This document shows, piece by piece, positions 230-24,064 of a stretch of DNA of 24,285 bases. Where the stretch lies: assembly GCA_964623945.1 (NCBI GenBank), contig CAZUWB010000001.1:1-24285 (forward strand). Reading direction: 5' to 3'. Under the pieces are notes generated by a model. It was not told the origin of the DNA, made no database searches, and saw only the letters and a program-made list of their open reading frames with translations. This stretch comes from an uncultured Methanosarcinales archaeon (lineage in GTDB: Archaea > Nanobdellota > Nanobdellia > Woesearchaeales > GW2011-AR4). The position numbers were made by a program, and so were the translations under genes. Position 1 is the stretch's first letter. Every line of letters starts with the position of its first letter.

Positions 230-3200
230 TTATTTGATATTAGTTAATTTTATTCTTTGTTCAACTAATCTATCAATCTCCTGAGAATCAATACTTCCAT
301 CTTCTCCATCTTGAGAGATTATTAATTGTGGATAATATCCATTTTCTTTGTACCATCGAAGTTTTCTGTCCCATGACTTCTTATACGAGTCCACAGATAA
401 CATTCCCAGATGTTCCCAATAAAATTCCGTAGAATTGATCATAAAAGTAAAATCCGGTAATTTGTAATCATAGGGATTATTTTTGGACACAAGCTTTTTC
501 TCATAGTTTTTCTCTGAGAGTTGAATTCCTGCTTTAATTAAAGCATTTGCAATAATAACCTCTGATTTTGATCTTACTAAAAATCCTGAACTAGTTTTAT
601 GAATTCTGTTTTCAGCATAAGGAATATCTGAGATATCATCTCTAACAGCCAGAGTAAATAAATAAGTATTTCTATTGTCAGTTTCAGAGCTACTTGCATG
701 TCTATATTTTTGTAGGGTGTCAATTCCCTTTTGTAATAGTAAAAAAGTTTTTTTCTTAAATCTGGTTAGGGCAGTATACATCATCTCCATTGAAAGATTA
801 TATGTTCCTTCAGGAATAATTAAGATAACATTTTCAAAGTCACTGCCTTGTGATTTATGTATAGTTATTGCATAAGCAAGATCCAGATTAAATTCTACGC
901 TTTGCTCCTTGCCTCCATTATAATAAGTATACCAATATTCTGATTGGTCTGAGAATCTTACATTTAATCTATCTTTAAATCCGTAAGGAGATTTTACTAT
1001 TCCAATCTCTCCATTAGCCACATATTTGTCAGGATTGTCTGGATAGCATTCAAGTTTCCTCGTATTAATGTTCTGTATAACTTTATCTTCATGAATAATA
1101 TCCTTAGTTTCTCCAAATGGTTTCGGAAATGATAGTCCTTTGCCATAATATCCACCCCTTCTCCATTTTTCAAGGGTTTTTCCTAAGAACTTGTTTTGAA
1201 GATAATTGTTTATTGAACCAGTGCCACAAATTTCTTTTTGCTTTACTGGACTTAAAACTTGCCAAGATTCACATTTTTTGGCATCCCAATTGCTAGAAAT
1301 ACCAACACTTTCTTTATAAGTGTCATAATCATTAATTCCTAATTTATTTAATGCTTTATCAAGTTGGCTATAGAGTTCTTCTAGTGTATCCCAAAAATAC
1401 ACAGATAAATCATCATTTTCGATGATCTTTTCTTCATTAATGAGACAATAAATTTCCTCAATATCCTTTGATTTAAAATCTCTTAGAAATCCATCAGCCA
1501 ATTGTAAGCAAAGACTATCTTTTTTCTTTTGTCTAACTCTTTCTTTTAAGACTGCTAAATTATTATAATAATTTTCATTATTTTTAAGCCATCTAATAAT
1601 ATCATCAAAAGGTCTTCCTGGTCCAATAGGAGGGAGTTGATTTGGATCTCCAACTAATATGAATCGGGATACATTAGTGAAGTCAATAGACCTTATAAGT
1701 GTGGCAAACAAATCCTCTGCTAACATAGAACATTCGTCAATAATTATTGTCCTTGCAAAAGTTTTTTCTCCTCCCTCAAACTTAAAATTAAAGCTATCAT
1801 CCAACCAACCAAGTAAGTTTAGATGCTGATGAATTGTTTTTGCTTCTAAATTAGGGATATTTAGGGTTTTATTTATTCTAACCCTGGCTTTGCCTGTTGG
1901 TGCAAGAATCAAGAAATCTTTTGCCTTTTGTTTCTCACTCTCTATTAGACCTTCAATTAAAATATTCAATACTTCTGTTTTTCCTGTTCCAGCCTTTCCA
2001 GTTAGGATTGAAAATTTTTTAGAAAACAAAATATTAAGTGCATTTGTTTTTTCAATTCGTGCAATTTTCTCAGTTTCGATACCCAACTCGGAATCCGCAA
2101 CAGCTCCAAATCTTTTATTCATAATTGTTTCCCAATTAGGTATGCTTTTATTGTATTCATTTCCTTCTATTAATTCTTTGATTTTGACTGCGATAGTTCT
2201 TTCATAATCTCTTATATATTTTAATGCAACAAAATCAGTATTTTCACCTATAAATTCTATACATTCTTCATAGAATTTTCTATTACTGTTAATCAGATAA
2301 GGATCAGGTATGCAAGTTCTTTCTTCGGGAAATCTCTCCCTTATTTTAAGTAATATATCATGTAAACTTAATAAGGAATCACCTTCACTGGCCGCTTCCT
2401 TTAAGGTTTCTATCATTAAGGCTCTTACTCTTCTATCATCGTCTAATTTATATTTTTCAGGAAGATAAAAAGAAGGGATCATTGCTTGGTCTATTATGTC
2501 GAATGGTATTCTTTCTGATTTTATCTCACCTTTTCTGGTTAATAATCCCTTATCTAGCTCTGCTATTAAATAAGGATTATTTACCAATTCAATTTCAGAG
2601 AAATTAAGTCCAGATTCGATTCTTAATTCTTTTTTAATTAATCGTTCAATTTGGTCTTCTGATATTTCTAATCTCATTAATAGTTCCAGAAATTTTCTTA
2701 TATTCTTATCTTTTGAATAGGCTCTCCATTTGATATAAGCATACTCAAAATCTCTTTTATAGTTATTTTCTGCAACTTTTTTGCCATCAAGAATGTCTAA
2801 TGTATGTTGTAATACATTCTCGTTATCCTGCTCCAGATTATAAAGAACTTCCTTTTGATAAGATAGTCCTTTGGTAAAACCTAAGAAATTAAGAACGCAT
2901 CCTATTCCGGGATATTGGCCTCTATTTTTCCATAACTCTTGCATTAGAGATTGTATCCATTTTTTACGCTTATTCCAATCTTCTTTTAATTTTATTCTTC
3001 CTTCTAACAAATCTTTTTCAATATTATCTATTATCTTACTTAATTGTTCCACGATAACTAGTAAACTACTATCAGACACATGTTCAGTAACATACTTAAA
3101 CTGCCTTTCAAAGTCACGAGGGGCAGTTAAAACTATATGTTTTGGATCAAGTCCTTGTTCCAAATATTCTTGATATGGTAATCTAAAGCCTTCTGCTGGA

Positions 3201-3847
3201 AAATTATGAGTTACCATCCTCTGCCATACTGGATTTGGATCTGGGCGTTTATCGCTAGAACCGTAGAATCTAATTTTTCCTTTTTTGAGAACTCTTCCTA
3301 TTCCTATTATTATTCTTTTTGTATCTTCCTCTACTGGTGCTGAATTGACATAAAAGACAACTATTGATTTTTTTTCTTCTATCTTATCCCAAAAGGCGTT
3401 TAGTAATTTCTCTTGAAGTCTAACGTCTCCTATCCAAGAACCACTTTTATCCTGTGGAGATAAATCCCTGAGTTGCAGTTTTTCCTTTTCTCTAATTTTA
3501 TTATATTCTGCGTATTGAAACCAACGATAAGGTGCTGGACAAAATGTATAAGGTGTGAACGTTTCAGGCAGTGGTGGAACATTCCAATTTTCAATCGGAT
3601 GTGTAAATGTAATGGGATATGTATGATCTGAAAAGATGCCTATCTCTGCTTTACATGGTGGATCATAATCTTCCTCTTTAAAATTTGATAGTGATTGATC
3701 TTTATGCTTTATTTCAATTAACTCGTTTTTGTTTTCTCTTATATGAGGTAAAGATGTACAGTATTTATTTTTTTGAGGACTTTTACATATTTTACCATTC
3801 CAACCAGAGTCATGCCAACTCAATCTAACTGATAAGTGTGTGATCAT
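230..3847 (-). CDS. RecD2-like SF1B helicase with a ~300-aa Cys/His-containing N-terminal domain and a C-terminal PD-(D/E)xK-like nuclease domain (1205 aa)
   Basis: Helicase motifs: GKAGTGKT (I), LAPTGKA (Ia), IIIDECSM (II), LVGDPNQLPPIGPG (III), LAYAITIHKSQGS (V), YTALTR (VI). The NPYLIAE...RRVRAL...EGDSLL segment resembles the RecD2 helical region. The C-terminus RSKSEVIIANAL...PDF...YWEHLG resembles an REase/Vsr-type fold. Confidence 0.85.
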   Translation of the reverse strand: MITHLSVRLSWHDSGWNGKICKSPQKNKYCTSLPHIRENKNELIEIKHKDQSLSNFKEEDYDPPCKAEIGIFSDHTYPITFTHPIENWNVPPLPETFTPYTFCPAPYRWFQYAEYNKIREKEKLQLRDLSPQDKSGSWIGDVRLQEKLLNAFWDKIEEKKSIVVFYVNSAPVEEDTKRIIIGIGRVLKKGKIRFYGSSDKRPDPNPVWQRMVTHNFPAEGFRLPYQEYLEQGLDPKHIVLTAPRDFERQFKYVTEHVSDSSLLVIVEQLSKIIDNIEKDLLEGRIKLKEDWNKRKKWIQSLMQELWKNRGQYPGIGCVLNFLGFTKGLSYQKEVLYNLEQDNENVLQHTLDILDGKKVAENNYKRDFEYAYIKWRAYSKDKNIRKFLELLMRLEISEDQIERLIKKELRIESGLNFSEIELVNNPYLIAELDKGLLTRKGEIKSERIPFDIIDQAMIPSFYLPEKYKLDDDRRVRALMIETLKEAASEGDSLLSLHDILLKIRERFPEERTCIPDPYLINSNRKFYEECIEFIGENTDFVALKYIRDYERTIAVKIKELIEGNEYNKSIPNWETIMNKRFGAVADSELGIETEKIARIEKTNALNILFSKKFSILTGKAGTGKTEVLNILIEGLIESEKQKAKDFLILAPTGKARVRINKTLNIPNLEAKTIHQHLNLLGWLDDSFNFKFEGGEKTFARTIIIDECSMLAEDLFATLIRSIDFTNVSRFILVGDPNQLPPIGPGRPFDDIIRWLKNNENYYNNLAVLKERVRQKKKDSLCLQLADGFLRDFKSKDIEEIYCLINEEKIIENDDLSVYFWDTLEELYSQLDKALNKLGINDYDTYKESVGISSNWDAKKCESWQVLSPVKQKEICGTGSINNYLQNKFLGKTLEKWRRGGYYGKGLSFPKPFGETKDIIHEDKVIQNINTRKLECYPDNPDKYVANGEIGIVKSPYGFKDRLNVRFSDQSEYWYTYYNGGKEQSVEFNLDLAYAITIHKSQGSDFENVILIIPEGTYNLSMEMMYTALTRFKKKTFLLLQKGIDTLQKYRHASSSETDNRNTYLFTLAVRDDISDIPYAENRIHKTSSGFLVRSKSEVIIANALIKAGIQLSEKNYEKKLVSKNNPYDYKLPDFTFMINSTEFYWEHLGMLSVDSYKKSWDRKLRWYKENGYYPQLIISQDGEDGSIDSQEIDRLVEQRIKLTNIK

Positions 3848-3855
3848 CTTAGTTA

Positions 3856-6033
3856 CTAAGTATCGATTATCATTAAATCTCTAGTTTCATTTCTAATCTC
3901 TCTATCATTTGGATAAATTTTTGCTTTCTTAACTAAACTGTTAAGGTGCTTTTTAACTGAATCGAATGTGAAGTAAAGTTGGTCTTTCTTAAGAGATTTT
4001 AATATTTCCTTAGGAAAATTATCCTTATTAACTATTTGATCTAAATTTCCTTGATAAAATGATGCTAATTTTATCAATTCTTCTCTATTTATGCAAGCCA
4101 CTTGACATTTTTTTAGATTCGACTTAGCTTTTGAATATATTAATTGATTTTTCAGTTCACCTGCAACCATTGCGAAATCATTTTTGCTAGTATTTGATGT
4201 TACAAAAATGTAAAAGTTAAGGTTACCAAATTTTGAGATAATTCTATTATTATTAAATGATTCCATATATTTTATATCTTTCTTTAGACCGTTTCTTTTA
4301 ATATACTTCAAAAGTGAAGTTTTAAGATACCTTTTAGAATCCCACAAACTGTACTTAACTTTTGAATATTTAACTCCAAAAGAACCATCTGCTAGGTTTG
4401 GGCCACCCCACCTTTGAGAGTTTGGAAAGATTAAGTTAAATATACCAAATATGATGAGTTCAAATTCTTGGTGAGGATAATTTCCTTGAATTAATCTCTT
4501 TAAGCATTCTTTAAAAGAGGCTATTTTAAGTTCATGCGCTTTGATATGAATATTCTTTAACATATCTAATAATAATTGGTAATTATTATTGATTAATGAA
4601 TGTATTAGTTGATAAGAATCAATACTTTGAAAATTAGCTAAAGTTGAAATCACCTGACCTTTCAAGTTTACTATTATAATAGGTAGACCTAATAATTCCA
4701 ATTCCTGAATTTTATTTGCGGTCAATCCTTTCCGGTTTAAAAGTATATAGTAGTATTTGCCATCTTTAGATAGCCTTAATAAGCTAGAATCATTAAACCC
4801 CATGTACCCTTTTCTCATTCTTTTAGAAGTAAAACCTGCATGTTTTACCCCAGAAGATAACATGCTCAATATTTTAATATGATTTAATTTTAAATCATAA
4901 TAATCTGTATGTTTAACATTTGATTCTTGCCCACAACTGCATAATTTATTTTTCATTCCTCTCAATATTCTATTTTTGCATTGAGAGTTTTGACAATGGT
5001 AAAGGTAGACATTTTTAACGGATATTAGTTTAAACTTCTCTAATTTAGTTATGTGATTCTTAAAATAAGGATTAAAGTAATCAGCTTTTGTAATAAATTC
5101 ATTATGAGTGACTATTTTTATTATTTTATCTTCCTCTATTTTATCAAAAATTAGAATTTCATTCTTGATATAATTTTGAATATTTGGTGGTAATTGGTTA
5201 ACTTGATTTTCGGGTGCAGTCAATAGTATATTAACATTGTCTGCGTCACTTTTTCTCTTTTCAAAAGTTAAAGTAACTGGATTTCCTTGTTTGTACGATA
5301 TACGTAAATGACTTATATCATAAATGGATAAATTCTTGTTTTCATTTAACCAATCTTGTAATTGTTTAAGGTAGAACTTACCTTCGCCTTTTCTTGAAAC
5401 TATTATTACTTTATCACTTTCACCATACAAAGTATGTCTTAAGCCTATCTCATAAATTTTTATTTCTCTATCAGATAATAATTTTGATAATTCAAGATTA
5501 TTATATTCTTGCTTATTTAGGTCATTTATTTTATATTTAAGTTTTGATCTAAACCACCATAAGATTTTATCAACCATATATCTTTCCGCATTAATGATAC
5601 GTAAGTTTTGATTTTCATTATCTATATAAACTCCAAAATAGTTATCAGTAACAAATTCATTTGCCTTGGTTTTGCGACTTTGATAATTATTAGAATTTCT
5701 TATTTTACAAATGTTGATTAAGAAATTTTTACCGTACTTATCAATCCGATGAATCTTATAATATTTCTTTTTATTCTTGGGATTGAAGAAAATTTCCAAT
5801 GATTTTTGTAATCTTTTCTTACCAATCCTTCTTGGAATAATTTTCCTTGTCTTAACAAACTTATTATTCTCAATCTGATAAATGATGTGCGTATTGATAA
5901 TATTCCAAAAACTTGGTTTTGAAAGTAAATCTATGTTTACTGAAGATATTTTGTAGATTTTTACAAAATCTGCTAATTCACCTTCAAAACCTATTCGATT
6001 GAAGGCATCTTTTATTTCTGATTGTCGAATCAA
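3856..6033 (-). CDS. Hypothetical 725-aa protein with a central Cys4 Zn-binding motif and a C-terminal restriction-endonuclease-like PD-(D/E)xK domain
   Basis: TTG start with GGGGTG RBS 7 nt upstream. CQNSQC-x12-CSC at 4933-4995. EFE...GGPNLADG...WDSK at about 4333-4466 fits the E...DG...DxK REase signature. Stop lies 8 nt from the helicase start. Confidence 0.65.
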   Translation of the reverse strand: MIRQSEIKDAFNRIGFEGELADFVKIYKISSVNIDLLSKPSFWNIINTHIIYQIENNKFVKTRKIIPRRIGKKRLQKSLEIFFNPKNKKKYYKIHRIDKYGKNFLINICKIRNSNNYQSRKTKANEFVTDNYFGVYIDNENQNLRIINAERYMVDKILWWFRSKLKYKINDLNKQEYNNLELSKLLSDREIKIYEIGLRHTLYGESDKVIIVSRKGEGKFYLKQLQDWLNENKNLSIYDISHLRISYKQGNPVTLTFEKRKSDADNVNILLTAPENQVNQLPPNIQNYIKNEILIFDKIEEDKIIKIVTHNEFITKADYFNPYFKNHITKLEKFKLISVKNVYLYHCQNSQCKNRILRGMKNKLCSCGQESNVKHTDYYDLKLNHIKILSMLSSGVKHAGFTSKRMRKGYMGFNDSSLLRLSKDGKYYYILLNRKGLTANKIQELELLGLPIIIVNLKGQVISTLANFQSIDSYQLIHSLINNNYQLLLDMLKNIHIKAHELKIASFKECLKRLIQGNYPHQEFELIIFGIFNLIFPNSQRWGGPNLADGSFGVKYSKVKYSLWDSKRYLKTSLLKYIKRNGLKKDIKYMESFNNNRIISKFGNLNFYIFVTSNTSKNDFAMVAGELKNQLIYSKAKSNLKKCQVACINREELIKLASFYQGNLDQIVNKDNFPKEILKSLKKDQLYFTFDSVKKHLNSLVKKAKIYPNDREIRNETRDLMIIDT

Positions 6034-12151: not shown

Positions 12152-12937
12152 TCAAGTCACCAAAAACTCAATCAATTTCTTACTCGCCTCAGCAATCACC
12201 TCCAAGTTTTCCATAATCTTCTTATAATCAGCATCATACAAGGCAAGATAGTTAAAGCTCTTGATTTCAAGGCCAAAGTGCTTGGAAACCACATAAGCAA
12301 CTCCTTCGGCCTGTATTTCCTTCTGCTGCCGGGAAGCCTTACTGTCCTTGCGGTGTATCAGCTCATGGCTAATCTCATGGAGCAGGGTATTAACCTGCGT
12401 ATTAACGCTTTGGCTAAGCCCTATTGCAATCCTACCGCCTAAGCTATAACCATAGAGGTTATTGATGCCAAGCTCTTCAAAATCAACCTCTATATCATGC
12501 CAATAGCAGAATTCAAGCAGCTTATGGAGGAGATCAAGGTGCTCTTCACCCTGAACCTCTATATCAATGTCAGGCAGCTCCTGGCCCTCTGTTTGAGATA
12601 CGTCAAAGACACTCACAGGATAGAACCTAATTACCTCTATTTCCTTATCCTGCTCCTCATCATACTGCTTGAAGGTAAAGGGGGCTAGAATCCTGATAGC
12701 CTTGCTGCCAGCCTTTATAGACCTTCCAAGGCCATTCCAGGTAACAAAGCCTGCTACCCTTGTAGCATCTTTCTTCTGGAAGTAGATAAGCAGCTGGTTG
12801 TGGTAGCTGTAATTCCAGAACCTTGACATGGTGTCCAAGTACTCCTTAAAGAACTCAGAAGCCCTAACTTTATCAGTTTCCTCAGCAAGCTCTTTTAGCC
12901 TGCTTTCTATCTCTTTTAAGAGCTGAGGGGTGTCCAT
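12152..12937 (-). CDS. ardC: ArdC-like anti-restriction protein: N-terminal ssDNA-binding domain plus HExxH metallopeptidase (MPTase) domain
   Basis: YS-x-x-NQLLI...A-x-x-VAGF-x-TW...GR-x-IKAGSKAIRILAP...VFDVSQT is the ArdC-N signature. LLHEISHELIH...E-x-x-AE is the zincin motif. GGGGGTG RBS. Confidence 0.85.
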   Translation of the reverse strand: MDTPQLLKEIESRLKELAEETDKVRASEFFKEYLDTMSRFWNYSYHNQLLIYFQKKDATRVAGFVTWNGLGRSIKAGSKAIRILAPFTFKQYDEEQDKEIEVIRFYPVSVFDVSQTEGQELPDIDIEVQGEEHLDLLHKLLEFCYWHDIEVDFEELGINNLYGYSLGGRIAIGLSQSVNTQVNTLLHEISHELIHRKDSKASRQQKEIQAEGVAYVVSKHFGLEIKSFNYLALYDADYKKIMENLEVIAEASKKLIEFLVT

Positions 12938-14731: not shown

Positions 14732-15232
14732 TTATTGTATAATTTCCTTCGTTTTTGCAATTACTTCCTTAGCTTGCTTTAATAATTGCTCATATAGATT
14801 ATCCTTCATGGATAGTTCTACACCATATTGAAAGCGCTCCCTTATACTGGTTGTAGTTTCATTGCTACCATCATTTAAAGATGTAATCTTATTTAATAGA
14901 GCATGATCAAACTCAATTTTTCCATTCTCAATTAAACTATAGATTACAGAGAAAGTGCAATCCTGATTTCTTGATTCGTAGCCATACCTGACTGCAATAG
15001 CCAGCATACAATGGTACATGGAATAGAAGATAGTGCTAGCGCTAATATCAGAATAATTGCCCTCCTTAAGATATTCAGTTGCCTTTAGATAATGCTCTGC
15101 CTTTGTTACATGCTCGGCAGCAAGCTTCTTATTTGGTTTAACCTTGACTAAGCCTTTATGTATTCCTCTTTCTTTCATCTCTTTTTCTGCTTTCTTTAAG
15201 CACCATTCCATCTTATTTTTTGCGTGTGTCAT
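14732..15232 (-). CDS. HEPN-domain protein (UPF0332-like; putative toxin)
   Basis: FYSMYH...G-x-ESRNQ-x-C...RERFQYG; ATGA overlap with the upstream nucleotidyltransferase gene. Confidence 0.85.
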   Translation of the reverse strand: MTHAKNKMEWCLKKAEKEMKERGIHKGLVKVKPNKKLAAEHVTKAEHYLKATEYLKEGNYSDISASTIFYSMYHCMLAIAVRYGYESRNQDCTFSVIYSLIENGKIEFDHALLNKITSLNDGSNETTTSIRERFQYGVELSMKDNLYEQLLKQAKEVIAKTKEIIQ

Positions 15233-15813
15233 TGTTTCATCATCTCAATTATGAGATCCTCCCCAAATGCGACTATTCCTTTTAAGGCGTTAAGTAACAC
15301 TTTATCTCCCTTATTGATATTTTTTATAAAATCTTCTTGGGATTGAAAAACTGGCTGAATTTTCTTTACATTCAAATTATTAATTTCTTCAATCTCTTTC
15401 TCGGCTCTTGAAAACCTTTTTTGGTCAGTTATTAAAACAGCATCTATATCCCTTGCTTCTTTATGCTTCCTTAAAACTGAACCAAAAAGAATAGCTGCAT
15501 CTGCATTCTTTATTTTCCTAATTTCTGAAATCCAAACCTTGACATAGGGATGGGCTTGCTCAGCCTCCCTTTTCAATAAGAATTTAACGTATTGCCTCAC
15601 ATAATCGCTGTCCAGATTAAGCTTGTAAAAGGTAGCATTTGCCAGCTGCTTTGGAATTACCATTTCCTCTTTCTCCAGCCTTTTAAGTATCTTGAATGCT
15701 CCCATTGCACTTAACCCTATTTCTTTTGCCAGGTTATAGGCATTGTAGTCTTTTTCCGGACTTTTGAATATGGTCAGCACCAGTTTCATCTCATTATCTG
15801 TTATTTCAGCCAT
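15229..15813 (-). CDS. Winged-HTH plus minimal nucleotidyltransferase (MNT) fusion; putative antitoxin/repressor
   Basis: N-terminal NAYNLAKEIGLS...KILKRLEKEEMV HTH; Pol-beta motif ILFGSVLR...DIDAVLI. Confidence 0.9.
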   Translation of the reverse strand: MAEITDNEMKLVLTIFKSPEKDYNAYNLAKEIGLSAMGAFKILKRLEKEEMVIPKQLANATFYKLNLDSDYVRQYVKFLLKREAEQAHPYVKVWISEIRKIKNADAAILFGSVLRKHKEARDIDAVLITDQKRFSRAEKEIEEINNLNVKKIQPVFQSQEDFIKNINKGDKVLLNALKGIVAFGEDLIIEMMKQ

Positions 15814-15930: not shown

Positions 15931-16092
15931 CTATACCTTGTTTAATACCTTCTCCATATAGGTGACAGGCTTGATGTCTGTGATAGTGGTCTTATGCACT
16001 ACCCATTTTTTGTCCTCAGACATAGCCACGCTTGTCTCTATTATTGGCTGCCTGTTCAGCTGCTCTTTCTTTGCTTCTGTTAGTTCTTTCAT
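15931..16092 (-). CDS. Unannotated 53-aa protein
   Basis: MKELTEAKKEQLNRQPIIETSVAMSEDKKWVVHKTTITDIKPVTYMEKVLNKV*. Strong AGGAGGT RBS; followed by the terminator hairpin. Confidence 0.8.
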   Translation of the reverse strand: MKELTEAKKEQLNRQPIIETSVAMSEDKKWVVHKTTITDIKPVTYMEKVLNKV

Positions 16093-16287: not shown

Positions 16288-19077
16288 TCATTCGGTTTTT
16301 CTTGGGCTTATTTCTTGCGATTTTTTGTCCGCTGAAAAGTAACTTCTCAGCTGCTTGCACACATTTTTTCTTGTGAATGTTTTGCCTAAGTTTTCATACT
16401 GATAAGCATAAGGAGCATCAGAAACCACAAAGAACCATTCTGCAAATTTCTCATTCAAAAGTGAAATCTTTTTCTGCAACAAGTCCTTTCGTTTATCAAA
16501 AGTAATTCCTGTCTCAACTTCAATGGCAATCTTTTTCTTTCCAATCTCAAAAATAATATCTGGATTATTAGCTTCAAAAGTTTTCACTTTATCAGTAAAC
16601 TGCAATAAGTATTCCTCAATCGCTTTTACCAAGAAAAAATGAGTAGTGCTTTCTCTTGATGAGGGCTTTAACAAGTAAACTTCCTGCCTGCCCCCTCCTA
16701 ATGGAACGTGGGAGCTTAAAACGTATTTCTTGCCAAGCAGGAATTTTATCTCATCCTCATTCAGATTTTTCTTTGCATAGAAGCCTTTATCTTCATCCAC
16801 CTTAATTATGACTTTTGGCTTTGCTTCTTGCTTTGGTACATCCTCATTCAGCTTGAGAAGTTCATCTGCATTAGTTGTAATGAGAATATGCTCCTCCTTT
16901 GAGGCGATGCTCCTTATCTCAGTATGCTCATTCTCCATTAATAAAATTCCTTCTCCAACACTTGCGCTCAGAAGCTTGTCTACTTCAGTTTGGCTAAGGC
17001 TAAAGGTCTTGATAACATTCTCAATCACAGCAGCCTCCTGCCTCATCAAGAGCTTATAGGCTGAATTTTGGAGTATGGCATTCGCAGCTCGGCTCATCAA
17101 GAGATCTGCCACATCTTGGGTAATGAGAAGTAATCCTAGATTGAATTTTCTGCACGTCTTGACAATCTCTAGGATATATTCAGAATCCTCAGCCCTGCTC
17201 AGCAATGACCAAGCCTCATCCACAATTAGGAGCTTTCTTTCCTTATTCTTTCGCATCTTCATATAGACATAATCAAGAATCAGGAACATATTGACTGGTT
17301 TAGCCTGGCGGGGCATATCTCCTATTATGAAGCCCACTAGCTGATTATCAAAGTTCAACTGAGTTTGCCTATTGAAAAAAGAGAAAACGCCATCTACAAA
17401 CATTGAAAGCCTGTTAATTAGGCTGCGGTATGTCTCTTTTTCTATGACTGTTGCATTTTTAGCCTGCCTTTCTAACTCCTGAAGCAAATCTCCTAAAATT
17501 GGCGGTTCATTATTCCAGCTTGCAGGCTCATTGGTAATTCCTTTCTTCTCATAGGTTAATGTCAAAGCTTTATCCAAAACAGCTTTCTGAATCTCAGATA
17601 CATTTCCCAGCATTATAGGGAATAAATCCATTAGAGATAGCCTTTTCTCAGCGTAATCATGCCCTAAAAGGTCTAAGGGATTAATTACAGTCTTTGAGTT
17701 CCTAGAGAAGTTCACAATCTGCCCATCAAATGCCTGTATTAGCTTAACATATTCCGATTGAGGATCAATAATGTTTACCTGTACTCCATTGAGCAGCTGC
17801 CGAATTATGAACAGTTTGGTCCAATAGCTTTTGCCTGCTCCAGAGCTTGCAAGCAGTATCCCATTGGGGTTTGTGAGTTTGAATATGTCTTTGATTATGG
17901 GAATATTGTTTCTATTGACGCCTAACCATACCCCTGATAGGTTGAGCTGTAGGAATTGAGATGTAAAAGGATAAAAAGCAGCTAATGCTTTAGTAGTGAT
18001 GTTCCTGCTCATGCCTAGCTCGTTTTCAGCTAATGGGATAGTGGATTTAAGGCCAGCCTTCATTCTAAAGAGGGCTTTTTTAGGGATAATGAGCATAGCA
18101 TTAAGTTCAGCCTCTACTTGCTTAGTTATGAGGTCAAGCTGCTCTTGGGTAGTGGCCTTGCAGTTAATGTAGAATGAGACATAGTACAGCTTTTCATTTC
18201 CTTTTTGCAGGTTCTCCAAGACTGCCCTAGTATCCTGATATTGAATCTCTAATGTGGGATTTATGCTAGATTTAAGCTCTGATGCAAACAGGTCAGCTCT
18301 CTGTTTTTGCAATTCCCTGTTTAGCATGACCATCATGGAATCAATGGGAATTGGCTCTATGAATAATGAAATGTCAAAAATGCCATTTAGAGTAATTATC
18401 TTGTCTAAGAAACCGATTTCTACGCTTCTGGGATAGCCGTCTGCATAGATTATCCTGCATTGCTTATCGCCAACTATTATTCTGTCTGGTAAATTTTTGA
18501 TGTACTTAGGAGCAATGATATAATGCAGATAATTTTCCTCTGTAACCTGAATATTGTCTTTGAACTTATCGCTATCGGTCAAAATGTCATTAAAGAAGCT
18601 GGCTAGTGTCTGCGTTAATTCCTCATCATTTAGCTTCCTGAATTTAAGGTTTAAGCTCCGGAGCTGCTGCTCTATCACTCCTAACTGCACGTTAAGGCCA
18701 ATTTCAGGCTTTTCGGGGATTACAACATAGAAGTTCCTGTTTATTACAGAATTGTCCTTGATTGTGTTTATAAGGTGCTCTTTATAACTTTCAAAATGCT
18801 TAAGGAGAATGTATTTCTTGTTTTTCTTAACTTGTTCCTCTACTCTTATTTCTAAAGCATTAATGTAACTGTCAAGATTAATATGGTTCGTGCTGACAAC
18901 TATCTGAATAGGAAAATCAAGGGCATTAAGGAACTTCTGGAATCCACTATTGACAACCTGCTTTTCTTTGTCATTTCTGATAGTGAAGTTTATTGGCTCA
19001 ACCTCTATAATGGATAATCTCCTTAAATTATAGTCCTGGTTTGCCTTAGGTAAGACGCTTTTTAGTTTTGTTAGCAT
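16288..19077 (-). CDS. virB4: VirB4/TraC-family conjugative ATPase with an N-terminal accessory domain and a C-terminal PD-(D/E)xK nuclease-like domain (929 aa)
   Basis: Walker A ASSGAGKS, IIDPQSEY, Walker B LIVDEAW, RKFNLGLLLITQ. N-terminal VEPINF...FQKFLNALDFPIQI. C-terminal ESTTH...PDIIF...IAIEVETG. Follows prgI. Confidence 0.9.
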   Translation of the reverse strand: MLTKLKSVLPKANQDYNLRRLSIIEVEPINFTIRNDKEKQVVNSGFQKFLNALDFPIQIVVSTNHINLDSYINALEIRVEEQVKKNKKYILLKHFESYKEHLINTIKDNSVINRNFYVVIPEKPEIGLNVQLGVIEQQLRSLNLKFRKLNDEELTQTLASFFNDILTDSDKFKDNIQVTEENYLHYIIAPKYIKNLPDRIIVGDKQCRIIYADGYPRSVEIGFLDKIITLNGIFDISLFIEPIPIDSMMVMLNRELQKQRADLFASELKSSINPTLEIQYQDTRAVLENLQKGNEKLYYVSFYINCKATTQEQLDLITKQVEAELNAMLIIPKKALFRMKAGLKSTIPLAENELGMSRNITTKALAAFYPFTSQFLQLNLSGVWLGVNRNNIPIIKDIFKLTNPNGILLASSGAGKSYWTKLFIIRQLLNGVQVNIIDPQSEYVKLIQAFDGQIVNFSRNSKTVINPLDLLGHDYAEKRLSLMDLFPIMLGNVSEIQKAVLDKALTLTYEKKGITNEPASWNNEPPILGDLLQELERQAKNATVIEKETYRSLINRLSMFVDGVFSFFNRQTQLNFDNQLVGFIIGDMPRQAKPVNMFLILDYVYMKMRKNKERKLLIVDEAWSLLSRAEDSEYILEIVKTCRKFNLGLLLITQDVADLLMSRAANAILQNSAYKLLMRQEAAVIENVIKTFSLSQTEVDKLLSASVGEGILLMENEHTEIRSIASKEEHILITTNADELLKLNEDVPKQEAKPKVIIKVDEDKGFYAKKNLNEDEIKFLLGKKYVLSSHVPLGGGRQEVYLLKPSSRESTTHFFLVKAIEEYLLQFTDKVKTFEANNPDIIFEIGKKKIAIEVETGITFDKRKDLLQKKISLLNEKFAEWFFVVSDAPYAYQYENLGKTFTRKNVCKQLRSYFSADKKSQEISPRKTE

Positions 19078-19390
19078 AGACTACTCCCTTGTCAATTTTC
19101 TTTATGCCTAGAAATTGGACCATCTTGGGATCCATTAAGTGCGCCTCCCTGAACTTGAGCCAGGCTACTAAATCCCTAAGATAAGATGCAAAATCAAAGA
19201 ATATGAAAAGGCAGGCTGCTCCTAGTAATATGAATTCAATACTAATTTTTATGTAAAGATTCCATTCAGTTCTCAAAAATATAACTAGGGCAGGTATAAC
19301 AAATAGCGCTGCATAAGCGAGCTGCTTAAAAGTTAGTCCAAATACTATCTTTTCTTCATACTTTAGTTGTTGCGGTATTTCATATGCCAT
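19046..19390 (-). CDS. prgI: PrgI-family (VirB3-like) membrane protein
   Basis: IPQQL-x-YEEKIVFGLTFKQL followed by two TM helices; GAGGT RBS; immediately upstream of virB4. Confidence 0.85.
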   Translation of the reverse strand: MAYEIPQQLKYEEKIVFGLTFKQLAYAALFVIPALVIFLRTEWNLYIKISIEFILLGAACLFIFFDFASYLRDLVAWLKFREAHLMDPKMVQFLGIKKIDKGVVYANKTKKRLT

Positions 19391-19397
19391 TTTTACC

Positions 19398-20300
19398 TCA
19401 TATCTTGCTTACCATAGTGGCAGCTTTGCCAATATCTGAATGGAGAGCTGCAAATGCTGCCTTTACTATTGCAAAGAGTATTAGGAAAATCATAGAGGAA
19501 TTAATCAGAATAAAGGTTGAAATCATTAGAAGTATCTTGAAATTCGCATAAACTGGTATTTCTATAAGTTTAGCAGCTGTCAATAGCATTAAGGAATGGA
19601 AAAATGGAATAAACATGATTATTAGCAGAATATTGAGTATAAGCTTGCCATAGCTCTTTAATGGTGGAATAAAGTATAGGAATAAGGCCATAGGGAATAG
19701 CATTACTCCTAAGGCAACAAGCAAGTATCGTAATGAAAGAAGTATTATTGTAAGCAGCAATGTCAACAAATAAGGAATTGCCAAGACTATTTGTAAACCG
19801 ATATTTGTTAGATTATCTACTGTAAGAAGGAAAAAGTTAGGATCAATTAAGCCTAATACTCCTACTGTTAGTCCTGATGAAACTTCTATTAATGCTGAAT
19901 AGAGGTAGAAAGAAGCCTGGACAAAGAAAACCATTAGGATTACATTCTTGAGCCACAGCTTGGCCCTTTCTCTTTGCTCAGCGGAATAGCCTGAGATTAT
20001 GAAGTTGAATCCGGCAAAGATAATGAATAAGCCATAGAATAATGAGATTATATATACAATAATTGCCCAAAGTGAGATAAAGCTATCAATATTAACTGGC
20101 TCTGAGAGCAGATTTTTAGTAAGTGTAAGAAATGGCTGCAATGGAGCATTTATGATTGTAAGAGTATATTCGTATATCTTTTGAGGGATGCAAGCAGCAA
20201 GATTAGTTAAGCCGCATGTTTCTTCTTCTTGTTGAGCATAGGATAGAGGTATGACAAAGAATATGTTTAAGACTAAATAAATAAATAAATTTTTTATCAT
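19398..20300 (-). CDS. VirB6/TrbL-like polytopic membrane protein (300 aa; start corrected to MIKNLF)
   Basis: Signal-peptide-like N-terminus, about 6 TM segments, RYLLV..G..LFP....FIP motif; G-run RBS 6 nt before the ATG at 20300; lies upstream of prgI-virB4. Confidence 0.7.
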   Translation of the reverse strand: MIKNLFIYLVLNIFFVIPLSYAQQEEETCGLTNLAACIPQKIYEYTLTIINAPLQPFLTLTKNLLSEPVNIDSFISLWAIIVYIISLFYGLFIIFAGFNFIISGYSAEQRERAKLWLKNVILMVFFVQASFYLYSALIEVSSGLTVGVLGLIDPNFFLLTVDNLTNIGLQIVLAIPYLLTLLLTIILLSLRYLLVALGVMLFPMALFLYFIPPLKSYGKLILNILLIIMFIPFFHSLMLLTAAKLIEIPVYANFKILLMISTFILINSSMIFLILFAIVKAAFAALHSDIGKAATMVSKI

Positions 20301-20325
20301 TTTCATCCCCCCCTTTAGAAATAGT

Positions 20326-20949
20326 TTACTTACGCAATAAATAACCAATTAATGAGACTATACCAACCACAACCGCTACTATGATAGATGTATTTATAAT
20401 TGAAGTGTAATCAGGAATTTTATTATCTAGAATCGCTATCGTAATTAAAAGAAAAGTGCAAACAAAATAAGCAGATATCCCGGCCTGCAATGCTTTCACA
20501 AATATATTATCTTTAAATAATTCGAGACCTACCGTAAAAGCGAAACCAAGAACTAAAATAATATTCAATATTAAATAAGTTTTCTGTTCTAAAATTTGTT
20601 TGATATTTGTTATTCTATTTTGATATATTAATAAATCCCCCTTTAGCTCTTTAATACTGTTATTTAATTCAATAATCTTTTCCTGACTTTTCTTTAAATC
20701 ATTCAAACATTCAACCGATTTATTCTCTAATAAGGTTTTATTTGATTTGAGAATATCCACTTCTTCATTTGCCTTTCCCAAATCGGACTGTGTTCTTTCT
20801 AAACTAGATTGACATAGATTATACATATCTTTTGGAACTTTTGTATCGTCTTTATTAAAAAAACTTCTTATAATATAGCTAGAAGCTAACACAATAACTA
20901 AAATAATAATTACAATCCAAAGCCACATTATTTTTTCTTTTCCAGTCAT
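20326..20949 (-). CDS. AT-rich membrane protein: N-terminal TM, coiled-coil ectodomain, 3 C-terminal TMs (207 aa)
   Basis: Hydrophobic ends; heptad-rich middle with sequons NKT, NKS, NNS; own TTTTTATA box 23 nt before the ATG. Confidence 0.7.
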   Translation of the reverse strand: MTGKEKIMWLWIVIIILVIVLASSYIIRSFFNKDDTKVPKDMYNLCQSSLERTQSDLGKANEEVDILKSNKTLLENKSVECLNDLKKSQEKIIELNNSIKELKGDLLIYQNRITNIKQILEQKTYLILNIILVLGFAFTVGLELFKDNIFVKALQAGISAYFVCTFLLITIAILDNKIPDYTSIINTSIIVAVVVGIVSLIGYLLRK

Positions 20950-21551: not shown

Positions 21552-21576
21552 TAATCTTAGTTGTCCCCTAAGATTA
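21552..21576. terminator. Perfect 9-bp inverted repeat between convergent genes (possible bidirectional terminator)
   Basis: TAATCTTAG-ttgtccc-CTAAGATTA, overlapping the stop codon of the 458-aa gene. Confidence 0.5.
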
Positions 21577-22950
21577 CATCCAAAATACATACTTCTTAAT
21601 GAGCAAATAAAGTGAATAAAGCACAGCAGAGAATACACTAAAATTGAGGGCAAACTCCCATGTTCCCTTTCTCTTCACATGAATGATTGCATAGGCTTCT
21701 AGATTATCGTATTGAGCAACTATCCGGTTTGTGTTAGGCTTTGCCTTAAGTAAAATAGAACCTTTTGCCTCATATTCTTCATTTCCGTACTTTATTGTGA
21801 CTGGTTCAGATGAATTTACAGTGAGTTTTATTGTCTCGTTCTCATCATACTGAACTTTATCTGTTTTGAGAACTATAGGAGCTATTGTCTGATTTAGTGA
21901 GCAATTTTCCTGCCATTTGTTAAAATGATCAAAATATATTAAAACGCATCTATTTGAATCTGGAATGTAAAACTTAAAGCTGCCATTAAGCTTCTGGACA
22001 TTAAGATTGTTAATTGTCTTTTTGATATGTTTATTAGCCCTAAAAGTTAGAACATCGTAAGGAGCTAATGTTTGGTTAAGCTCGTAATAGTAATTGAATT
22101 GGCTCAAAGAGGAATTGTCAAGCTCAAGAATAAAGGCATCAAAATTTGAGATATTAAGTAAGCCAACAGTAGTAGATTTATATCGGTTTACAGCTCTAAT
22201 TGTAGGCTCTATATTTGGTTTATATAAGACAGCTTGCTTAGAATCTATCAGGTTTACTTCACTAGTTCTATACTCCGTATTCTCATATTGGCATACAGTG
22301 CAGTATTTATGGCAGCCATTTTCATCTCTTCTACAGCAATACTTATACTCCCTATAATGCTTAACTTCAATAGTTGCTTTAACGTTAAGGGAAGCGTTAA
22401 AGCTGAGGTTTTGGGCTGTATTAAAGGAAGTCAGCTTGCTATCACCAATGTACCCGTTATTGAGATAAAGGCTTAGCTGGCTATTGTTTTCAGTTAAAGT
22501 AAATTCAGTCTTACAGTCTCCTGGCTCGGTGCCTGAAGGTATTTCTACCCAATAATTATAAGCGCTTAAGACCTGTCCATAGCCAGGGCTTATTAAGTCA
22601 TTTTTAAGCCAAACAGAAGGCATTATGGCTACGATCTTGAACCAGGCATCCCTAATATAGTCTTTGTTAGTACTTTTGATATCATAGGGCACTTCCAGAA
22701 AACTAATGCCTGTATTCCATTCCAGGATTAAACTATGGTTTGCATAATATGTATTTGAGTACATAAGATTACCTACTAGGAGCTGCTTTTCTGAATCTGA
22801 TAGATTGCTTTGCATAGCCTGAACACAGGTATCCCAATCCTTTTCGGCGGTGTCGCTACAAGTAAGGGCGGGTGCTGGCCAGGCTAATGCTAAAGCAAGG
22901 ATGCAGGTGGTTACCCAATGAGCAGTGTTACAACGAATGGAGCTGCCCAT
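21574..22950 (-). CDS. Secreted, C-terminally anchored Cys-rich surface glycoprotein (putative mating-pair adhesin)
   Basis: Hydrophobic signal ILALALAWPAPA, C-terminal TM, CC-x5-C-x3-C-x2-C loop, 13 N-x-S/T sequons in the ectodomain; directly after the pilin gene. Confidence 0.7.
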   Translation of the reverse strand: MGSSIRCNTAHWVTTCILALALAWPAPALTCSDTAEKDWDTCVQAMQSNLSDSEKQLLVGNLMYSNTYYANHSLILEWNTGISFLEVPYDIKSTNKDYIRDAWFKIVAIMPSVWLKNDLISPGYGQVLSAYNYWVEIPSGTEPGDCKTEFTLTENNSQLSLYLNNGYIGDSKLTSFNTAQNLSFNASLNVKATIEVKHYREYKYCCRRDENGCHKYCTVCQYENTEYRTSEVNLIDSKQAVLYKPNIEPTIRAVNRYKSTTVGLLNISNFDAFILELDNSSLSQFNYYYELNQTLAPYDVLTFRANKHIKKTINNLNVQKLNGSFKFYIPDSNRCVLIYFDHFNKWQENCSLNQTIAPIVLKTDKVQYDENETIKLTVNSSEPVTIKYGNEEYEAKGSILLKAKPNTNRIVAQYDNLEAYAIIHVKRKGTWEFALNFSVFSAVLYSLYLLIKKYVFWM

Positions 22951-23267
22951 ATTACAGATAAGCCGATTATGACATAGGTTGCCATGTGCTTGCTAGTCTC
23001 TCTCCTTTTGACATCATTTCCAGAGAACATGTAGCTCATGCCAGCAAACAGCAAGGCTATTACTGCAACCAAAGATGCTCCATATTTCAGGAAATTGTAT
23101 ATTTTAGCTACTGGTGTTAGTATGCTGTCAAACTGAGCCTTTTCTTCAGCTGTGGGCTGAGTATTAAGATCAGCTGCATACACCGCTGGACTTGACAAAA
23201 CAAATCCTATCAATAAAAATTTGGACAGCAACACCAAGGCCTGCCATGCGCTATTCTTTACTTTCAT
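22911..23267 (-). CDS. VirB2/TrbC-like conjugative pilin (118 aa; start corrected to MKVKN)
   Basis: GGAGGTG RBS before the ATG at 23267; signal peptide ending AVYA; two hydrophobic helices joined by AG-x-x-YM-x-SG...RE..K. Confidence 0.8.
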   Translation of the reverse strand: MKVKNSAWQALVLLSKFLLIGFVLSSPAVYAADLNTQPTAEEKAQFDSILTPVAKIYNFLKYGASLVAVIALLFAGMSYMFSGNDVKRRETSKHMATYVIIGLSVIWAAPFVVTLLIG

Positions 23268-23311
23268 TTCGCACCTCCGCATAATTTTAAGAATTTCAAA
23301 ATGATAAATTA

Positions 23312-23385
23312 CTTTTAAACTTTGTATTGATTTTGTCAATACAAGAAAAAGTGTATTTACAGCGTCAATACAAGATTTTTATATT
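23312..23385. promoter_or_regulatory. Divergent promoters with two tandem palindromic operators TTGTATTGA-N5-TCAATACAA
   Basis: Perfect copy at 23322-23344 and a near-perfect copy at 23351-23373. TATA boxes TTTAAAAG (-, 23319-23312) and TTTATATT (+, 23378-23385) flank them. Confidence 0.75.
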
Positions 23386-23785: not shown

Positions 23786-24064
23786 GTGTCAATAAAAAGA
23801 ACAAACTATCATGTAATTGACGGAGATACGATCTATCTTAACAGGGGCATTAATGGTCGTCACTACGTTAGACTTTCTGGTATTAATACGCCTGAGAAAA
23901 GAGAAAGGGGTTATATACAAGGCAAACAGGATTTGGCCAGTGTTCTTGCGGGAAGGCCGATTACAATTAAGCCACAGGCGACTAATCAAAATAGAATTAT
24001 AGGTACAGTTAAGGTTCATGGAAAGAATGTGAATAGGCAGATGAGACGATGGGGTTGGTTCTGA
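23786..24064 (+). CDS. Short thermonuclease (SNase-fold) protein without signal peptide, possibly degenerate
   Basis: VIDGDT, VRLSGINTPE, R...V...G-x-NVN..M...G; GTG start with GAGGT RBS; TTTAAATA at 23716-23723. Confidence 0.8.
   Translation: MSIKRTNYHVIDGDTIYLNRGINGRHYVRLSGINTPEKRERGYIQGKQDLASVLAGRPITIKPQATNQNRIIGTVKVHGKNVNRQMRRWGWF

Follow-up and report, generated by a model that had tools for sequence, protein, structure and literature searches.

A predicted PD-(D/E)xK nuclease domain fused to the VirB4 ATPase of a minimal type IV secretion system in DPANN archaea

Introduction

Whether one polypeptide may both process DNA and power its export is the question raised by a gene on a 24,285-bp archaeal contig (CAZUWB010000001.1), which was analysed over its entire length and is called the window below. 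The gene encodes a VirB4 ATPase of a type IV secretion system (T4SS) that continues, behind a short linker, into an additional C-terminal domain. An initial annotation, made from the sequence alone, had described this domain as a PD-(D/E)xK nuclease resembling the MOB_C/Replic_Relax relaxases and had suggested that the fusion protein might form an unusually minimal conjugation machine. Archaea are known to host conjugative plasmids and integrated elements; according to reviews, a relaxase for their transfer has yet to be identified and is listed as an open point (PMC12857230, PMC9905601, PMC6563490, PMC3158045). In the literature covered, which was full text and held few subscription papers, neither a fusion of VirB4 to a nuclease nor a conjugative element from the DPANN lineages treated here was found to be described.

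The fusion gene and its VirB4 part

Positions 16288-16850 encode amino acids (aa) 743-929 and the stop codon of a 929-aa open reading frame (ORF), 16288..19077 on the minus strand. The gene and its parts were delimited as follows:

16288..19077, minus strand: VirB4::nuclease fusion gene, 929 aa (ORF list and translation)
16855..19077, minus strand: VirB4 part, aa 1-741, with a TraC-like N-terminal domain and a P-loop ATPase domain (NCBIfam, Pfam, Foldseek)
16810..16842, minus strand: Lys/Glu-rich flexible linker, aa 746-756 (predicted local distance difference test, pLDDT, <50 in the full-length model)
16669..16809, minus strand: beta-alpha-beta-beta subdomain, aa 757-803, before the nuclease core (AlphaFold2 secondary structure)
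16324..16668, minus strand: predicted PD-(D/E)xK nuclease core, aa 804-918 (AlphaFold2 topology, Foldseek, conservation)

The short motifs that had been picked out behind the ATPase are all present in the translation: the linker VPKQEAKPK (aa 747-755), ESTTH (aa 809-813, nucleotides (nt) 16639-16653), PD (aa 839-840, nt 16558-16563) and, exactly 12 residues later, EVE (aa 853-855, within nt 16507-16521). Between homologues the linker differs in both sequence and length.

The N-terminal part was confirmed as a VirB4 ATPase. Residues 1-741 matched the NCBIfam models CD1110 and VirB4_plasma (both 3e-93), with a CD1110 score of 313 bits that lies slightly under the equivalog cut-off of 325, and the ATPase part matched the Pfam families TraG P-loop, AAA_10 and DUF87 (PF19044, PF12846, PF01935). 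PF26593 (TraC-like) and PF19044 were also among the precomputed family matches for this part or its homologues. A full-length AlphaFold2 model had a mean pLDDT of 81; its best Foldseek match was TrwK/VirB4 of R388 (E 1e-28), and it aligned to the VirB4 C-domain of Thermoanaerobacter (4ag5) with a template modelling (TM) score of 0.84 at 28% identity. HerA complexes were found among the structural matches of the ATPase part. The two-domain architecture of VirB4 proteins was thus recovered by both profile and structure matches. Both NCBIfam matches stop at about aa 716-719, and the solved and curated VirB4s in the NCBIfam and Foldseek comparisons stop short of the nuclease domain, in agreement with the earlier statement that canonical VirB4 has no such domain.

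Related loci were collected by scanning one genome per species for homologues of the domain, which gave 102 loci, of which 80 were kept. In one clade of these (L024, L034, L045, L046, L059, L067) the first ~160 VirB4 residues have an ORF or frame of their own, which lies ~1.8-3.2 kb upstream of the nuclease domain. In other homologues VirB3/PrgI is fused to the VirB4 N-terminus, with PF12666 lying within the one protein.

Fold and putative active site of the C-terminal domain

The domain alone, modelled by AlphaFold2 with an alignment of 15 homologues, reached a mean pLDDT of 87, with values >90 across most of the core; inside the full-length model its pLDDT was ~85. The modelled core has an alpha-beta-beta-beta-alpha-beta topology, with helices at residues 811-825 and 864-877 and strands at 831-833, 841-845, 848-855 and 880-885. 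Nearly all Foldseek matches in the PDB have the restriction endonuclease (REase) fold (Hef/XPF, R.BspD6I, PspGI, Can2/Cdn1, VRR-NUC and Hjc/Hje), with a probability of up to 0.99 for Hef/XPF at modest E-values of at least 0.015. Matches in a viral structure library were endonucleases, Mrr and VRR-NUC proteins and a phage CoiA-like 'competence protein', and over the PDB and viral matches together the E-values were modest, at least 5e-4. These weak structural E-values set a limit on the fold comparison.

The conserved core residues are E809, H813, D840, E853, E855, T856, G857 and K870, arranged as E809-x3-H813 ... P839-D840-x12-E853-V-E855-T-G ... K870 and followed by the beta4 strand WFFVV. In 82 domain sequences taken from genomes, which include all unfused copies and have a mean column identity of 33%, H813, D840, A851, I852, E853, E855, T856 and G857 were invariant, and E809, K870 and the beta4 WFFV were conserved at 90% or more. 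Identical columns were invariant in 50 full-length proteins. Both the fold and the conserved Asp of beta2 and Glu of beta3 that characterise PD-(D/E)xK nucleases were thus found. The Lys position of the (D/E)xK triad is occupied by Glu (E855), and the near-invariant K870 lies on the next helix.

Sequence searches gave little: the C-terminal 188 aa had no Pfam, NCBIfam or PDB sequence match, and neither the domain sequence nor the 82-member profile found anything meaningful among PDB sequences. Homologues of the domain were recovered at E-values of 1e-16 to 1e-106, and these homologues, the invariant residues in the 82 sequences and the pLDDT of 87 show that the domain is not a chance product. 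The subdomain at aa 757-803 carries a conserved I-x-V-D...L-x-x-D/E-E-I-x-F/Y-L pattern in two alignments; it had no significant family match and does not form a complete winged helix.

Model, structure matches and conservation agree with the fold and the intact-looking acidic site that had been proposed for the domain, and the last ~175 residues of the VirB4 protein apparently constitute a predicted catalytically competent PD-(D/E)xK nuclease. It is most improbable that the domain is instead a non-enzymatic DNA-binding, oligomerisation or docking module of VirB4. Such a module would account for the Glu in place of the canonical Lys, and the inactive REase-fold domains ERCC1 and FAAP24 are among the structural matches. 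However, the acidic positions as well as H813, T856, G857 and K870 are invariant or nearly so at ~30% identity, the unfused copies included, and such conservation is typical of active sites. The ExE variant is moreover shared with the MOB_C enzymes (PMC12857230).

Relation to MOB_C relaxases and CoiA

The MOB_C reference was an alignment of 19 sequences, consisting of the TraX-like 'replication-relaxation' protein of pTEF1, which is typed as MOB_C, and 18 homologues. The RefSeq mob region of CloDF13 consists of short or odd ORFs and was unusable for MobC; the pTEF1 gene was used instead. Invariant in the TraX family are E97, H102, E129, R130, D152, E170, E172, K176, R180 and Y181. The E809-x3-H813 and D840-x12-E853-x-E855 of the domain have counterparts in E97-x4-H102 and D152-x17-E170-x-E172 of TraX, and the motif order is common to both: E..H in alpha1, D in beta2, E-x-E-(T) in beta3, a basic alpha2 and h-h-h-V-T in beta4. 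When the domain family was compared with the TraX alignment by hhalign, D840/D152, E853-E855/E170-E172 and beta4 were in register over 64 columns, at a probability of 1.3% and an E-value of 0.042; against the single TraX sequence only 8 columns were aligned.

Other hallmarks of TraX are missing. The K-x3-R-Y (K176-x3-R180-Y181) after the ExE strand, already noted as not evident in the initial annotation, is absent, with no R-Y in the corresponding helix. Equivalents of E129-R130 are absent as well, and in place of the N-terminal winged helix-turn-helix (wHTH) there is the 47-residue beta-alpha-beta-beta unit, for which no HTH family was significant. The window domain did not match PF13814 (Replic_Relax) at E <= 1, and only one of the 82 members did (E 1.5e-3). 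Comparison with PF13814 and TraX thus gave no significant profile match: of the proposed resemblance to MOB_C/Replic_Relax the shared motif order stands, whereas homology is not supported, and as judged from sequence the domain resembles MOB_C in motifs only. The shared motif order, the hhalign register and the single PF13814 match would suit a true but highly diverged member of MOB_C. This is very unlikely, since 81 of 82 sequences lack a PF13814 match, the hhalign values are poor, the TraX-specific residues and wHTH are missing, and most of what the motifs have in common belongs to the fold.

The likeness to MOB_C (TraX of pAD1, MobC of CloDF13) lies in the use of a PD-(D/E)xK fold for DNA processing in conjugation, in the acidic D...E-x-E variant with a His in alpha1 and the same motif order, and in the encoding on conjugative and mobilizable elements (PMC12857230). 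In contrast to the domain described here, which is archaeal (DPANN) and either fused to VirB4 or membrane-anchored with no type IV coupling protein (T4CP) found, MOB_C enzymes are bacterial, free proteins that work with a T4CP.

CoiA_nuc (PF06054) was matched by 34 of the 82 members (best E 1.8e-4) and AHJR-like by 10. Among ten members inspected there were six CoiA matches, of 13.8-18.3 bits against a cut-off of 20.3, which covered the catalytic core at profile positions 1-57; the window protein itself had no CoiA_nuc match. The N-terminal zinc finger and long C-terminal region of CoiA were not found, as VirB4 lies in front of the domain and only ~10 residues follow the core. CoiA is a PD-(D/E)xK structure-specific endonuclease that resolves the transformation D-loop in Bacillota (bioRxiv 10.1101/2024.02.06.579203). 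It shares with the domain an atypical PD-(D/E)xK site, a link to horizontal DNA transfer and, in some unfused relatives of the domain, a zinc ribbon before it. It differs in being cytosolic, restricted to Bacillota and active with RadA after uptake (bioRxiv 10.1101/2024.02.06.579203), and in having no link to VirB4 or integrases. From the family matches and the hhalign result the domain is regarded as a new family of the PD-(D/E)xK superfamily, which in sequence is weakly nearest to the CoiA/Hjc-like nucleases.

Prevalence of the fusion and unfused forms

How often the fusion occurs was answered at the level of loci and of single proteins. In 61 of the 80 loci the domain was in frame with a VirB4 ATPase, in 1 a frameshift separated the two and in 18 no ATPase was present. 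All of the 120 best homologues of the ATPase part carried the extension (870-1130 aa unless visibly truncated), and identity was 51-84% across 49 aligned homologues. In databases these proteins are named only 'ATP-binding protein', 'TraC' or 'DUF87 protein', with no Pfam family recorded on the C-terminal extension. The fusion is the standard form of this VirB4 clade and not an oddity of one contig.

When 1.84 billion representative proteins were searched exhaustively with the profile, 938 clusters at 50% identity were found, 599 of them at E <= 1e-10. Among 159 domain proteins there were 69 VirB4 fusions, 42 with the domain alone and 48 with an extra N-terminal region of ~45-190 residues, mostly one to three transmembrane (TM) helices and, behind them, a linker rich in Lys and Arg. 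The positive-inside rule would place the domain of these membrane-anchored copies in the cytoplasm, at the membrane. A few of the 48 have a zinc ribbon or another segment instead of TM helices, and the zinc ribbon was found only in a few unfused relatives (P0012, P0053, L016). In a neighbour-joining tree of the domain the unfused copies were scattered among the fused ones, and the invariant residues were kept in all of them. Several copies of the domain were present in some genomes.

Nearly all of the 80 loci are labelled Nanoarchaeota, Woesearchaeota, Pacearchaeota, Nanoarchaeia or unclassified archaeal bins. Some of the contigs bear the labels 'uncultured Methanosarcinales' (L004, L006-L010, L012, L018, L020, L056), 'Bdellovibrionales' (L037) and 'Babeliales' (L043), which probably reflect mis-binning or mislabelling and not true hosts.

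The T4SS module and its mobile-element context

The fusion gene is the last of a conserved module of five genes, which encode a TrbC/VirB2 pilin, a DUF8186-type protein, a VirB6-like protein, PrgI/VirB3 and VirB4::nuclease. Upstream of the fusion gene, the window contains:

19046..19390, minus strand: VirB3-like membrane protein of the PrgI family (PF12666, 6e-07), upstream of VirB4 in 49 loci
19398..20348, minus strand: polytopic membrane protein, VirB6-like (multiple TM helices, weak T4SS_pilin match), kept in 44 loci
20326..20949, minus strand: 207-aa membrane and coiled-coil protein, a variable T4SS accessory (from sequence)
21574..22950, minus strand: 458-aa secreted or anchored DUF8186-type protein, conserved in 23 loci
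22911..23339, minus strand: VirB2/TrbC-type pilin (TrbC 1e-10, T4SS_pilin 2e-09), conserved in 42 loci

Position and topology suggest that the product of 19398..20348 is VirB6-like. The 207-aa protein had no homologue in the related loci, and the DUF8186 counterparts in L086-L088 carry PF26589 (weak). The VirB3, VirB6 and VirB2 homologues lie directly upstream of the fusion gene and are conserved in 42-49 loci, which is the company expected of a VirB4.

In the related loci this module is found on integrated elements. A tyrosine integrase was encoded upstream in 20 loci and an N6/N4 DNA methylase in 22. The order tRNA, integrase, N6/N4 methylase, T4SS and VirB4::nuclease was found in L024, L050, L058, L065 and L080, where the integrase follows directly after tRNA-Asp or, in L080, tRNA-Glu. 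Together with L087 and L088 these loci have a tRNA-adjacent integrase with the T4SS inside, and an integrase directly after a tRNA gene identifies such loci as integrated elements of the integrative and conjugative element (ICE) type. In seven further loci (L026, L052, L062, L063, L069, L070, L073) the next gene downstream of the integrase encodes the domain in unfused or membrane-anchored form, with a tRNA just upstream of integrase and domain in L026, L062 and L073. This layout resembles that of bacterial integrative mobilizable elements, which carry an integrase and a relaxase. The location of the T4SS in tRNA-integrase elements and of the domain right after the integrase, as a relaxase would be, makes the suggested processing and export of DNA by one polypeptide more plausible.

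Cargo genes of other loci encode restriction-modification (R-M) systems, Cas4-like nucleases, Fic, RHS toxins and reverse transcriptases. In L001 (8905-8936, 8993-9016) and L026 (7963-7984) the tRNA gene is closely followed by one or two further copies of its 3' end (22-32 nt, 100% identity), which look like scars of repeated integration at one site.

The composition of the module also brings in DNA import. The Ced and Ted systems of Crenarchaeota likewise consist of a VirB2-like pilin, a VirB6-like channel and a VirB4-like ATPase, with no T4CP or relaxase, and HerA-NurA is proposed as the nuclease partner that makes single-stranded DNA in these systems (PMC9905601). A Ced/Ted-like uptake system could carry a tethered CoiA-like nuclease that cuts recombination intermediates, or that degrades one strand or the whole molecule for a nucleotide-poor symbiont. 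VirB2, VirB6, VirB3 and VirB4 with no T4CP or relaxase found would match it, as would the association of Ted loci with HerA/nuclease functions (PMC9905601). CoiA_nuc is the most frequent Pfam match of the domain, a phage 'competence protein' is among its structural matches and the N-terminal zinc ribbon of CoiA has a counterpart in some unfused relatives. However, Ced and Ted are chromosomal, domesticated importers whose ATPase has no nuclease domain, whereas the system described here has a VirB4 of the MPF_FATA/CD1110 type and lies inside tRNA-integrase elements with selfish cargo, in multiple copies in some genomes; an importer would not spread the element that encodes it. Elements made of integrase and domain are hard to explain by uptake, the inspected CoiA matches were under the Pfam cut-off, and CoiA itself works in the cytosol once DNA has been taken up (bioRxiv 10.1101/2024.02.06.579203). 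Import is therefore considered unlikely.

Search for a relaxase, a coupling protein and an oriT

No relaxase or VirD4/T4CP family was found by Pfam, NCBIfam and PADLOC scans of the other ORFs of the window, in line with the initial observation that neither is encoded there separately. Within 10 kb on either side of the 80 loci, a Walker-A screen combined with Pfam gave no T4CP. The other Walker-A proteins of at least 330 aa near these loci were AAA_13/15, MoxR, AAA_14 and KaiC-like proteins and housekeeping enzymes, together with one large protein without a family match. Four further Pfam-annotated neighbourhoods contained no T4CP or relaxase family. The pair of relaxase and T4CP that marks an ICE was thus seen neither in the window nor in the 80 loci, for which the relaxase screen was not exhaustive, nor in the four neighbourhoods. 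The phmmer result for the pTEF1 T4CP against the locus ORFs was set aside, since its control, pTEF1 VirB4 against the DPANN VirB4s, was empty as well.

The 1205-aa RecD2/TraA-like helicase encoded at the other end of the window was considered as a hidden relaxase-helicase and rejected, because the PADLOC defence candidate PDC-S68 matches its entire length and none of the related loci encodes a homologue.

Proposed role of the fusion

The role favoured here, plausible if not quite probable, is that the nuclease tethered to the motor prepares element DNA for transfer, with VirB4 as the only motor of a minimal T4SS. Held by the disordered linker, the nuclease would sit on the cytoplasmic side of the single ATPase of this archaeal T4SS. 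After excision of the element, the tethered nuclease would nick or cut element DNA at the mouth of the channel in place of a relaxase, and VirB4 could then drive the strand out without a coupling protein. Elements with an integrase and a free or membrane-anchored domain might depend on this machine in trans for their mobilization, as bacterial integrative mobilizable elements depend on others. The stronger version of this proposal is rather doubtful. It holds that the VirB4-tethered domain is the missing relaxase equivalent of archaeal conjugation, so that one polypeptide cuts DNA and pumps it through a five-gene T4SS without a coupling protein, and that the integrase-adjacent paralogues are archaeal integrative mobilizable elements.

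Several points weigh against a role in transfer. The role of the fusion is proposed from sequence and models, and from these we infer nuclease activity, its substrate and site specificity, the direction of transfer and the movement of DNA by VirB4. VirB4 is not known to translocate DNA by itself. As Glu stands in the place of the canonical Lys, K870 or H813 would have to sustain activity. The family closest in sequence, CoiA, resolves recombination intermediates of imported DNA and is not a relaxase, and a minimal VirB2/VirB6/VirB4 set without T4CP is the make-up of the DNA-importing Ced and Ted systems (PMC9905601). A relaxase was not seen in the 80 loci, where the screen for it was not exhaustive. 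In the 474-bp spacer downstream of the fusion gene, searched for an origin of transfer (oriT), only short two-copy repeats and two terminator-like hairpins were found. The window has no integrase, no tRNA and, in a circularity test, no terminal overlap, so that its status as an integrated element is taken from its relatives; its closest relative, L004, likewise has no integrase or tRNA. The search for right attachment site (attR) copies of tRNA 3' ends gave only the tandem scars near the tRNA (L001, L026), which leaves the element ends undefined. Finally, the scattered unfused copies are possibly leftovers of decayed elements.

Comparison with other motor-nuclease and transfer systems

The proposed transfer machine has partial counterparts elsewhere. 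HerA-NurA and other motor-nuclease pairs of the FtsK/HerA family combine a hexameric pumping ATPase, from the superfamily to which VirB4 belongs, with a nuclease for the threaded DNA, but NurA is a separate subunit with an RNase H-like fold, and the complex is soluble and serves end resection with no membrane channel. The T4SSs of Patescibacteria (candidate phyla radiation) have a MPF_FATA-related VirB4 and VirB2-like pilins, occur in ultrasmall episymbionts and mostly lack a relaxase (PMC12102498). Unlike the element-borne archaeal system described here, they are chromosomal, near dnaA, and are thought to have been co-opted for non-conjugative roles (PMC12102498), and no nuclease fusion is reported for them. 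The giant SPEARE proteins of nanohaloarchaea have a VirB4-like domain and a disputed endonuclease domain in a different architecture (PMC10266531).

Genes downstream of the fusion and defence functions

Downstream of the fusion gene the window contains, among others:

15931..16092, minus strand: 53-aa ORF, a possible partner, directly downstream of the fusion (translation)
14732..15813, minus strand: wHTH-nucleotidyltransferase and HEPN pair (PDC-M05A-like) beside the domain gene (PADLOC)
12152..12937, minus strand: ArdC-like protein with an ArdC N-terminal domain and an M78 peptidase (ArdcN 5e-08, Peptidase_M78 8e-06)
230..3847, minus strand: 1205-aa protein with an N-domain without assigned family, a RecD2-like superfamily 1B helicase and a nuclease-like C-terminal tail (PADLOC)

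Part of the 474-bp spacer is a small ORF. The 53-aa ORF (MKELTEAKKEQLNRQPIIETSV...HKTTITDIKPVTYMEKV) is preceded by GGAGG, and its region shows DNA conservation with L004-L006. It matched no Pfam family, and a homologue follows VirB4::nuclease in 12 loci of at least two domain clades; its product could be a partner or an inhibitor of the nuclease.

The cargo of the window comprises the HEPN/nucleotidyltransferase pair, the ArdC-like protein, a type I R-M system and the 1205-aa helicase, which matched PDC-S68 with 1052 bits. Defence neighbours across the loci include type I R-M systems, the PDC-S68 helicase, HEPN/nucleotidyltransferase pairs and Cas4-like and DUF2779 nucleases. This abundance of defence genes, the HEPN/nucleotidyltransferase pair beside the domain in the window and also beside unfused domain genes in L003 (8664-9754), L057 (1680-2685) and L066 (11997-13068), and the membrane anchoring of unfused copies could be understood if the membrane-tethered cytoplasmic nuclease destroyed DNA that enters through the same or a rival channel, in entry exclusion or in defence against plasmids or viruses. 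Such a function is quite improbable, as it leaves the universal fusion to the T4SS motor in this clade unexplained. Moreover, no PADLOC model matches the domain, the sole match being mad8 on the ATPase part, and an unspecific cytoplasmic nuclease would need control by an inhibitor or by DNA modification, for which the 53-aa ORF is no more than a candidate.

With transfer as the favoured role, the domain is a testable candidate for the DNA-processing enzyme lacking so far in archaeal conjugation. The candidate lends itself to expression: the nuclease domain is small, offers six invariant residues for mutation and is joined to the sole motor of a very compact T4SS, and it is spread over hundreds of DPANN protein clusters. 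Should it nick or cut element DNA, this would amount to a third route to start transfer, independent of a relaxase and a coupling protein, and ICE-like and mobilizable elements would become annotatable in a large group of uncultivated archaea. Were its role import or exclusion instead, the domain would still represent a new family of membrane-tethered nucleases tied to T4SSs and integrases.

Further genes of the window and related loci

The ArdC-like protein belongs to a kind of accessory typical of conjugative elements. Although an ArdC profile found only the window's own copy when compared with the 80 loci, the identical architecture is encoded downstream of VirB4::nuclease in L086 (20060-20839) and L087 (14430-15224). 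NikA is a ribbon-helix-helix accessory protein of the relaxosome, and in L088 a 76-aa gene with a weak NikA-like ribbon-helix-helix match (6567-6797) lies between the integrase and the T4SS pilin gene. The ArdC-like genes and the NikA-like gene fit DNA transfer.

The 725-aa neighbour of the helicase gene (3856..6033) had no family match. Upstream of the pilin gene one more small ORF was noted:

23786..24064, plus strand: 92-aa ORF with a weak staphylococcal nuclease (SNase) match (E 0.002; family match)

Its coding status is uncertain because it overlaps an antisense ORF.

RHS/YD-repeat proteins of ~1900-2000 aa and associated genes were found directly downstream of the domain/T4SS locus in four loci (L026 10621-18161, L046 12415-20008, L075 11678-20334, L082 12925-20384), which hints that some elements carry polymorphic toxins. 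Near the domain gene, and often next after it on the opposite strand, reverse-transcriptase genes (RVT_1, group II intron-like) were located in L016 (10706-11929), L083 (8928-10103), L036 (2351-3796), L001 (13142-14361) and L003 (12420-13583).

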